Shown here in pieces: positions 3,534 through 3,762 of a stretch of DNA of 4,613 bases. Numbering within the stretch: the first letter of the stretch is position 1; every line of letters starts with the position of its first letter. The position numbers and the translations under genes were made by a program. Location of the stretch: IMG/VR virus record IMGVR_UViG_3300007747_000079; one strand, given 5' to 3'. This DNA comes from a virus (lineage: Duplodnaviria > Heunggongvirae > Uroviricota > Caudoviricetes). The notes beneath the pieces are model-generated. The model did no database searches. It was given only the letters and a program-made list of their open reading frames with translations, and was not told the origin of the DNA.

Positions 3534-3707
3534 TCAGCCTTTGGGCTCGATACCGCGCTGTTGTAATTCTTTGCGGAGTATTCGTTTAATCCAAGTAGCT
3601 AATGAGGTGTCGCCGTCTGCCTTGGCTGCCTCCTCAAGTTGCGCTCTAAATTCTTCTGGTAGTCGCATTTGGTATGGTGGCGATCGTTTCTCTAATGGTG
3701 TTGACAT
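3534..3707 (-). CDS. Arc/MetJ-type ribbon-helix-helix transcriptional repressor (57 aa; absent from ORF track)
   Basis: Reverse-complement translation from ATG (complement of 3705-3707) to TGA (complement of 3534-3536) gives MSTPLEKRSPPYQMRLPEEFRAQLEEAAKADGDTSLATWIKRILRKELQQRGIEPKG. This follows the Arc-like pattern (…RlPeel…aA..…S.n..I..rL) comparable to P22 Arc. Its start codon abuts the palindromic operator repeats. Confidence 0.75.
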   Translation of the reverse strand: MSTPLEKRSPPYQMRLPEEFRAQLEEAAKADGDTSLATWIKRILRKELQQRGIEPKG

Positions 3708-3762
3708 GGTAATTACCCTTGATTACTATAGTTACATGGTAATTACCATTGTACTTACCATT
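3701..3762 (+). promoter_or_regulatory. rightward sigma70-like promoter with two palindromic operator repeats (probable binding sites of the adjacent Arc-like repressor)
   Basis: TTGACA (3701-3706), a 17-nt spacer, then TACTAT (3724-3729). Two 17-bp near-identical direct repeats, ACATGGTAATTACC(C/A)TT at 3704-3720 and 3734-3750, each hold the perfect 10-bp palindrome GGTAATTACC (3708-3717, 3738-3747). The second extends to the 14-bp palindrome ATGGTAATTACCAT. One lies in the spacer and one at the predicted start site; a further TTACCATT half-site is at 3755-3762. Confidence 0.5.

Follow-up and report, generated by a model that had tools for sequence, protein, structure and literature searches.

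A predicted ribbon-helix-helix repressor, paired palindromic putative operators and a candidate antisense RNA at the early promoter of an Escherichia coli phage satellite

The immI region of phage P22 carries two ribbon-helix-helix (RHH) repressors, Arc and Mnt, together with the overlapping promoters Pant and Pmnt and the sar antisense RNA. Among plasmids, pMV158 combines the RHH protein CopG with the antisense RNAII, IncFII R1 relies on CopB, CopA and tap, and IncB/IncI replicons are controlled by RNAI and a leader peptide. Coliphages 186 and P2 have face-to-face lytic and lysogenic promoters, and small RNAs act in the immI region of P1/P7 (C4 RNA, with icd and ant) and in P4 (CI RNA). Among phage satellites, Stl and Rpr are the master repressors of Gram-positive phage-inducible chromosomal islands (PICIs), the SaPIs (PMC6092414), whereas Gram-negative satellites of the helper-embedded PICI kind are still without an assigned repressor. 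Here we describe a locus from such a satellite in a 4,613-nt stretch of DNA (IMG/VR record IMGVR_UViG_3300007747_000079; the whole stretch is called the window below). It holds a gene for a 57-aa RHH (Arc-like) putative repressor, rhh, a rightward promoter, P_R, with two palindromes, O1 and O2, and a candidate cis-antisense RNA. We consider it likely that the RHH protein binds O1 and O2, represses P_R and limits its own synthesis, with the antisense RNA as a probable second lock; we infer binding, repression, start sites and autoregulation from the sequence.

The P22 immI region resembles our locus in its small RHH repressors, in a strong promoter whose -35 and -10 flank an operator, in overlapping opposed promoters where repression of the strong one favours the weak one, and in an antisense RNA over the ribosome-binding site of the downstream gene (the last two being predicted features in the window). 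However, there is no significant sequence match to Arc or Mnt and the operators are unrelated in sequence. Two palindromes lie 30 bp apart here, compared with one 21-bp Arc or 17-bp Mnt operator in P22, and icd-like and replication genes of a satellite lie downstream, whereas in the phage it is ant. The plasmid systems of pMV158, IncFII and IncB/IncI have, as predicted for our locus, a replication operon under a small RHH promoter repressor and a ~50-90-nt antisense RNA directed at the leader or ribosome-binding site, as well as a first small open reading frame (ORF) that is coupled to the next gene. They differ in that copG of pMV158 is co-transcribed with rep, whereas rhh lies opposite to and overlaps the operon, and in that the first target gene is icd-like here and rep in the plasmids (the match to the Rfam family PK-repBA in the window has E=0.28 and is on the + strand).

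In 186 and P2, as proposed for our locus, the repressor is made from a weak promoter that faces the strong early one, and by binding two repeats around the latter it relieves interference on its own promoter. Their repressors are helix-turn-helix (HTH) proteins and their start sites are tens of bp apart, whereas the predicted starts overlap by ~6 nt here and the ATG of rhh lies in the -35. Interference between convergent promoters is treated in PMC5001618. The likeness to P1/P7 and P4 lies in a small RNA that blocks the icd ribosome-binding site at the head of the operon, and Icd-like genes are shared (PMC10111431); C4 and CI are processed sense-strand RNAs with Rfam models, none of which matched the window at E<=1, whereas our candidate is cis-antisense. 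Finally, Stl and Rpr also have their gene opposite to a satellite excision/replication operon, with quiescence until a helper phage acts, as we propose here; in contrast, Stl proteins are large, of the HTH type and without relation to RHH, and derepression by helper proteins has been shown for Stl.

Paired palindromes at the rightward promoter and in related loci

An earlier note on this DNA had reported a repeat with a perfect palindrome in two copies 30 bp apart, and both are present (from 3704 and 3734). Specifically, a repeat search of the window returned the 18-nt direct repeat ACATGGTAATTACC[C/A]TTG at 3704-3721 and 3734-3751 (94% identity, 30 bp spacing), with a weaker third copy at 3746-3763 (72% identity). 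The core 10-mer GGTAATTACC has two exact copies in the whole window, at 3708 and 3738, and the same two sites only in the 32.7-kb composite of prophage and satellite. When up to two mismatches were allowed, there were seven matches in the window against a shuffle mean of 1.98, a number reached in 1 of 200 shuffles.

A promoter scan of positions 3400-4000 found one sigma-70-like site, TTGACA-17-TACTAT (10/12 matches), with both hexamers and a spacer within the 16-18 bp range. O1 lies entirely within the 17-bp spacer of this promoter (P_R) and O2 begins at about its predicted start (~3736), which agrees with the earlier placing of one copy in the spacer and the other over the start (Table 1). 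An extra half-site proposed at the same time, TTACCATT at 3755-3762, is present, but it is the right half of a degenerate site, 3748-3761, and is not conserved as a half-site. In this possible third site, O3, conservation is confined to the left half, which coincides with a candidate leftward -10.

Related E. coli loci were fetched (L002-L007), 60 more (L008-L067) were added by a genome scan, and the upstream regions of all loci were aligned on the rhh gene. Homologous loci also occur in O157:H7 strains. In ~70 related loci, drawn from many genera of Gammaproteobacteria, the linkers drift but sequence is conserved at the -35, at the two palindromes and at a -10 of the form TAnnnT, so that the refutation envisaged by the earlier note, a lack of conservation in homologous loci, did not occur. 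Four classes of repressor were distinguished (A to D), and within the 38 distinct class-A regions information content was highest at the -35, O1 and O2 and near zero in the linkers, with a T1-A2-T6 (TAnnnT) signature at the P_R -10. Among 48 distinct regions, 35 have O1 and O2 spaced by 30-31 bp; the spacing is 27-28 bp in class C, and in some class B loci it extends to as much as 35 bp. When IMG/VR was scanned for the exact operator pair, 24 stretches were found; 22 of these adjoin a class-A gene at identical geometry, and the remaining two are unrelated tandem repeats.

Each repressor class has its own palindrome, which is altered in both copies together. Class A (repressor EKRSP[QP][YF]QMRL) has GGTAATTACC / GGTAA[TC][TG]ACC as O1/O2, class B (KTDQYQ[IL]RL, or ENKSQQYQIRL in Pasteurellaceae) has TGTAATTACA, class C (NKRSPQFPMRL) has GGTATATACC, and class D (ERRGNPPFQFRL) has GTGTAATnACAC, GTGTAAT[TG]ACAC. 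The palindromes are very probably conserved sites to which the adjacent RHH protein would bind, and the suggestion that they are operators of the Arc-like protein gains from their conservation across genera and from their change in step with the repressor class.

This reading carries two caveats. The gene and the operators overlap, and the co-variation of repressor and operator is therefore confounded by co-inheritance. Furthermore, no single-residue recognition code holds: a simple residue-to-base code, in which residue 14 (M vs I/L/F) is set against the outer base (G vs T), was tried and fails at L036 and in class D. Nonetheless, recognition is favoured by the joint change of the two separated copies on either side of drifting DNA. 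Linkage alone as the cause of the co-variation would also leave room for another protein at the palindromes, either the AlpA-like HTH protein or the Bro-N protein of the island or a host regulator, with a different target for the RHH protein. AlpA, an activator in EcCICFT073, is the only regulator with experimental proof in a related island (PMC6092414), and Bro-network proteins are capable of repression (PMC10111431). Yet the operators are retained in L002-L007, where Bro-N is absent, and the module is also kept in plasmid fragments flanked by insertion sequences (IS) that have neither int nor alpA (L004, L094). In addition, both copies shift in step with the rhh class in all four classes, and they overlap the rhh start and its predicted promoter, which is the usual place for the operators of an autoregulated RHH repressor. 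We thus regard binding by one of these other proteins as unlikely.

It could also be argued that the repeats are replication iterons, arm sites of the recombinase or chance palindromes of an AT-rich intergenic region, considering that the operator region is indeed AT-rich and that PICI origins contain repeats (PMC6092414). Such origins, however, lie downstream of the primase gene (PMC10111431), and the att junction is ~2.4 kb from the repeats. The exact 14-nt repeats are found nowhere else in the 32.7 kb; they are conserved across genera between drifting linkers, and they hold a fixed place with respect to the -35, the -10 and the ATG of rhh. This explanation appears very improbable to us.

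With regard to plasmids, a class-D repressor with operators and a small divergent gene is found between IS elements at 2503-3223 of L004 and 2487-3150 of L094, an arrangement present in many Klebsiella, E. coli and Salmonella plasmids. A relative of the repressor is encoded in 120 plasmid records.

Table 1 Features of the switch region and of the satellite genes in the window.
Feature	Position	Strand	Basis or remark
P_R -35 TTGACA	3701-3706	+	promoter scan; reverse complement is part of the rhh Met-Ser codons (ATG TCA)
Operator O1 ATGGTAATTACC	3706-3717 (core palindrome 3708-3717)		within the P_R spacer
P_R -10 TACTAT	3724-3729	+	promoter scan; predicted start ~3736
Operator O2 ATGGTAATTACCAT, perfect 14-bp palindrome	3736-3749 (core 3738-3747)		spans ~+1 to +14 of P_R; also over the P_L start region
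Possible weak third site O3 ATTGTACTTACCAT	3748-3761		12/14 to the O2 14-mer; centre 12 bp from O2
rhh, 57-aa RHH (Arc-like) putative repressor	3534-3707	-	end coordinate includes the stop codon
rhh Shine-Dalgarno-like AAGGG	3716-3720	-	8 nt ahead of the ATG; O1 between AAGGG and ATG; read from the sequence
Candidate P_L -10 TACAAT	3748-3753	-	conserved TAnAAT abutting O2; below promoter-scan threshold; predicted start ~3741
Candidate P_L -35 TTGTTT	3770-3775	-	16-bp spacer; in the T-run of the upstream terminator
Candidate ~78-nt cis-antisense RNA	3764-3844 (~3843 to ~3766)	-	helix GCCA/UGGU, stem-loop and terminator
Antisense stem-loop	3815-3837	-	loop CUCCUGU complementary to the Shine-Dalgarno GGAG (3826-3829) of the first P_R gene
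Antisense terminator	hairpin 3775-3807, then U-run 3764-3774	-	terminator scan
Candidate antisense promoter -10 TATGCT	3851-3856	-	conserved TAnnaT
24-codon ORF, first of the P_R transcript, N-terminal remnant of an Icd-like gene	3838-3912	+	compared with the intact genes of L004 and L005
HNH_3+AP2 endonuclease ORF with Icd-like C-terminal domain	3905-4582	+	Pfam, NCBIfam
Truncated lambda-type terminase gpA gene	225-1154		Pfam
Tyrosine integrase	1316-2554		Pfam
AlpA-like HTH protein, 67 aa	2567-2770		Pfam
Bro-N protein	2829-3410		Pfam

The repressor gene and its leftward promoter

To characterize the 57-aa protein, we compared it with curated families and structures. Its score for Pfam Arc (PF03869) was below the cut-off (16.9 vs 20.4 bits, E=0.0057), as was its score for NCBIfam YlcI_YnfO_N (19.1, cut-off 30), and no curated RHH family model was matched above its cut-off. 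Pfam Arc was matched by 14 of 48 relatives of the protein (best E=2.5e-4). A sequence and profile search of the PDB with the protein gave nothing significant, only spurious designed helical repeats and AmrZ at E=0.83. An AlphaFold2 model (predicted local distance difference test, pLDDT, 77) has an extended N-terminus followed by helices at residues 18-31 and 36-50, and the protein thus has the N-terminal beta-strand and two helices within ~45-55 residues of the RHH fold. The family consensus SPQYQMRLxEEF also aligns, by eye, with PQFNLRWPREV of Arc. We therefore accept an RHH fold as modelled, while family membership is unproven by the curated thresholds. RHH dimers read repeated or palindromic subsites with their paired strands, and indirect evidence for this in our protein comes from the palindromes that co-vary with repressor class.

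Repressor relatives form 108 clusters from Enterobacterales, Pasteurellaceae, Aeromonas, Oceanimonas and Gilliamella. Within a phage collection, a relative was encoded in only 4 of 50,697 records, one of them probably a packaged Pasteurella island, which indicates that this is not a typical phage repressor family.

The fold matches of the RHH protein include the antitoxins VapB, ParD and MazE, and some sources label members of the family 'HicB family antitoxin'. It might accordingly be proposed that the protein is the antitoxin or autoregulator of a small toxin-antitoxin-like pair and that the palindromes serve autoregulation only, not the replication operon. Several related loci do have a second small gene on the same strand downstream of rhh, and the Icd-like product encoded downstream of P_R is a predicted cell-division inhibitor. 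In the window, however, no co-directional ORF follows rhh, as 3411-3533 holds only terminator-like hairpins, and we rejected the toxin-antitoxin reading for the window because the partner ORF is absent. Autoregulation alone would also leave unexplained why O1 occupies the spacer of a 10/12 rightward promoter with conserved -35 and -10. We judge this explanation to be quite improbable.

The hairpins past rhh, at 3420-3439 (with a T-run) and 3478-3491, are on the minus strand between the Bro-N and rhh stops. They are probably the rhh terminators, ~45-95 nt past its stop codon.

Returning to rhh as the putative repressor gene of P_R, we found that its 5' end and the promoter occupy the same DNA. 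The rhh ATG lies within the -35 hexamer, so that the rightward promoter sits over the 5' end of the leftward gene, and the start codon, which reads CAT on the + strand (3705-3707), is inside TTGACATGG; the two transcription units therefore overlap and are not simply back-to-back. Of 72 related gene copies, 66 have TTGACA over the start codon and one more has TTAACA there. The start codon of the relatives is ATG, or GTG or TTG in some classes, and the GTG/TTG-start classes retain TTGACA (as TTGACAC and TTGACAA). We note that at 3701-3707 the invariant -35 TTGACA is the reverse complement of the first rhh codons, ATG TCA. Across the protein family M1 and S2 are nearly invariant. Since the -35 complements these codons, the near-invariant Met-Ser N-terminus and the promoter constrain each other.

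The promoter of rhh itself, P_L, would have to lie to the right of ~3725 and to the left of the minus-strand terminator at 3775-3807. Class-A loci have a minus-strand TAnAAT directly to the right of O2; its T-A positions, which lie outside the palindrome, equal the operator itself in conservation. TTGTTT sits 16-18 bp upstream of this TAnAAT, and AAACAA ahead of the hairpin is conserved in most loci. In class B, our reading of the alignment places the equivalent at TTGCAA-18-TGTAAT, with the -10 inside O2. In classes A and B, O2 thus overlaps the -10 or start of the repressor's own promoter, which implies autoregulation.

P_R and P_L are predicted to be face-to-face and overlapping, with starts that overlap by ~6 nt. 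The earlier note suggested a divergent switch, but the promoters do not form a simple divergent pair. Its idea of a palindromic two-way -10 is not supported. The palindrome ACTATAGT is present at 3725-3732 but is not conserved (it reads ACTATACC in L003 and ATATGATG in L005), and we rejected its minus-strand TATAGT as the rhh -10 because it is not conserved, has no -35 and would leave an 11-nt leader.

A candidate antisense RNA and the proposed switch

To the right of the operators, we predict a ~78-nt minus-strand RNA that covers the ribosome-binding site and start of the first P_R gene (Table 1). All classes retain its hairpin (3775-3807) and show compensatory changes in it. When the strands were folded separately, 39 of 46 loci gave the more stable fold for the minus strand (mean -21.2 vs -16.9 kcal/mol; Wilcoxon p=2e-6). 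On the plus strand, C:A/A:C mismatches (99) were more frequent than G:T (14), and such mismatches correspond to G:U pairs in a minus-strand RNA. We considered the hairpin as a leader structure of the P_R mRNA and rejected this because pairing is better on the minus strand (in 39 of the 46 loci, and with 97 G:U cells vs 10), which also carries the U-run.

For 32 diverse loci, the alignment was then lengthened as far as the first start codon, and RNAalifold returned a 4-bp closing helix, a stem-loop and the terminator, in total 21 pairs, 14 of which have compensatory double changes. Alignment cells were paired in 94.9% of cases, compared with 85.2% in shuffles, and the observed values were reached in 0 of 500 shuffles; slid controls of the structure were paired at 37-48%. 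The same pairs reached 81.9% on the plus strand, a figure that leans to the minus strand because the structure was predicted there, and the per-strand folding above is the unbiased test. The candidate promoter of this RNA has a TAnnaT hexamer 10 nt upstream of the start-codon complement, which 66 loci keep despite differences in the residues that the overlapping codons specify. Support for expression of the RNA comes from this -10-like hexamer. No convincing match was found for its -35.

An Rfam scan of the whole window at E<=1 gave no minus-strand family for the antisense RNA, and neither C4 nor isrK; besides PK-repBA, a Trp_leader-like terminator that follows the AlpA-like gene was matched (E=0.66). 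The candidate is therefore without a curated RNA family, but it has the features of a cis-antisense RNA, being structured, on the opposite strand, equipped with an intrinsic terminator and complementary to the ribosome-binding site of its target. Photorhabdus loci (L039-L043) have two class-C copies, and the hairpin of the second copy pairs better on the plus strand and is possibly decaying.

Taken as a mechanism, RHH protein on O1, in the spacer, and on O2, at +1 to +14, would exclude RNA polymerase from P_R. P_R would drive the icd-like gene and, further on, the primase and replication genes of the satellite. O2, and possibly the weak third site, overlap the weak P_L (TTGTTT-16-TACAAT), which could provide autoregulation. 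Because P_R and P_L share the same DNA, they could not both be occupied, and a free P_R would outcompete P_L. Once freed, P_R would transcribe across P_L and the antisense promoter, while a repressed P_R would leave both free, which gives the arrangement a switch-like potential. This mutual antagonism of promoters is the sole basis on which the term bistability, used in the earlier note, could be applied, and it describes a potential. The antisense RNA would probably block translation of the icd-like gene from P_R transcripts that escape repression. Candidate triggers of derepression are an antirepressor encoded by the helper and AlpA-driven read-through, the latter because AlpA activates in EcCICFT073 (PMC6092414).

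EcCICFT073 (L093 12474-12860, E. coli CFT073), the model Gram-negative PICI, offers a comparison at the same position. A 59-aa YlcI/YnfO-type protein is encoded on the minus strand in place of the repressor. TTGACG-18-TATAGT and the DNA directly behind it hold two copies of the direct repeat GTGGGCCACACC at a distance of 23 bp, and beyond the repeat pair come the same hairpin and an Icd-like gene. The small protein has no significant similarity to our 57-aa RHH protein (E=0.14). This same layout with a different repressor-like gene and different repeats makes the cassette look general and modular. We thus count at least four specificity classes for the RHH family, plus the unrelated YlcI/YnfO-type cassette of EcCICFT073. 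Tandem cassettes also occur, and L002 (2497-3877) and L006 (2496-4116) carry an RHH cassette followed by a YlcI/YnfO cassette.

More tentatively, and with less confidence than for the switch itself, we suggest that the cassette of rhh, operators, promoter and antisense RNA could be the master repression and immunity module that has so far been missing for Gram-negative PICIs. It might then come in exchangeable classes, set which satellites can coexist, and be the point at which helper phages or AlpA-driven read-through act as triggers. For Gram-negative phage satellites, the locus offers candidates for both a repressor and an antisense RNA. The finding is not surprising in kind, since RHH repressors that act at palindromes within a promoter are a classical theme and the kind of switch is well known; the operators are new, the setting is a satellite, and the operon that is headed is an icd-like/replication operon. 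Our literature search, whose coverage did not extend to subscription journals, returned no description of the module (operator, RHH in PICIs, YlcI/YnfO, EcCICFT073 repressor). The sequence signature, e.g., TTGACATGGTAATTACC, can be used for finding and typing such satellites, and the operator classes suit specificity swaps. A compact consensus promoter with an orthogonal set of 57-residue repressors could also be of use as a genetic part.

The satellite island and its other genes

The window belongs to an E. coli helper-embedded PICI satellite that is inserted in a prophage terminase gene. A locus of E. coli strain 20, 99.5% identical, has a ~10.5-kb island between the halves of the large-subunit terminase gene of a lambdoid prophage. 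This island contains int, an HTH gene, Bro-N, a small gene, HNH/icd-like, DUF4222, primase, single-stranded DNA-binding protein (SSB), a prohead protease/capsid fusion and DUF1441. The interrupted gpA gene is represented by 225-1154 of the window, with the left junction at ~1155-1315, and by halves at 14225-15217 and 25972-27093 of L001. Helper-embedded PICIs are characterized by int/alpA, a variable zone, primase/SSB and late genes, all co-oriented over ~11 kb within a late gene of a prophage, and the island agrees with this configuration, A_Terminase type, as described by Tommasini, Mageeney and Williams (PMC10111431). In the same paper an HNH_3+AP2 Bro-network protein is noted for one A_Terminase island, but neither the small RHH gene nor any operator.

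As the icd-like gene is followed by DUF4222, primase and SSB, P_R can be seen as the early or replication promoter of the satellite. In the relatives L004, L005 and L007 an intact Icd-like gene is the first after the leader. In the window this gene is split: the 24-codon ORF, which resembles its N-terminus, and the HNH_3+AP2 ORF overlap at ATGGCTGA, and NCBIfam phage_ICD_like was matched at residues 177-220 of the latter (E=1.3e-18), whose last 45 residues are Icd-like. The Icd-like gene (3838-4582) seems to have received an in-frame insertion of the HNH_3+AP2 endonuclease gene.

A tRNA scan of the window found none. A strong terminator-like hairpin (CCCCGCACGCAATGCGGGG and a T-run) lies at 2777-2811, directly past the AlpA-like gene, where it would restrict transcription that runs on from alpA into Bro-N and the switch region.

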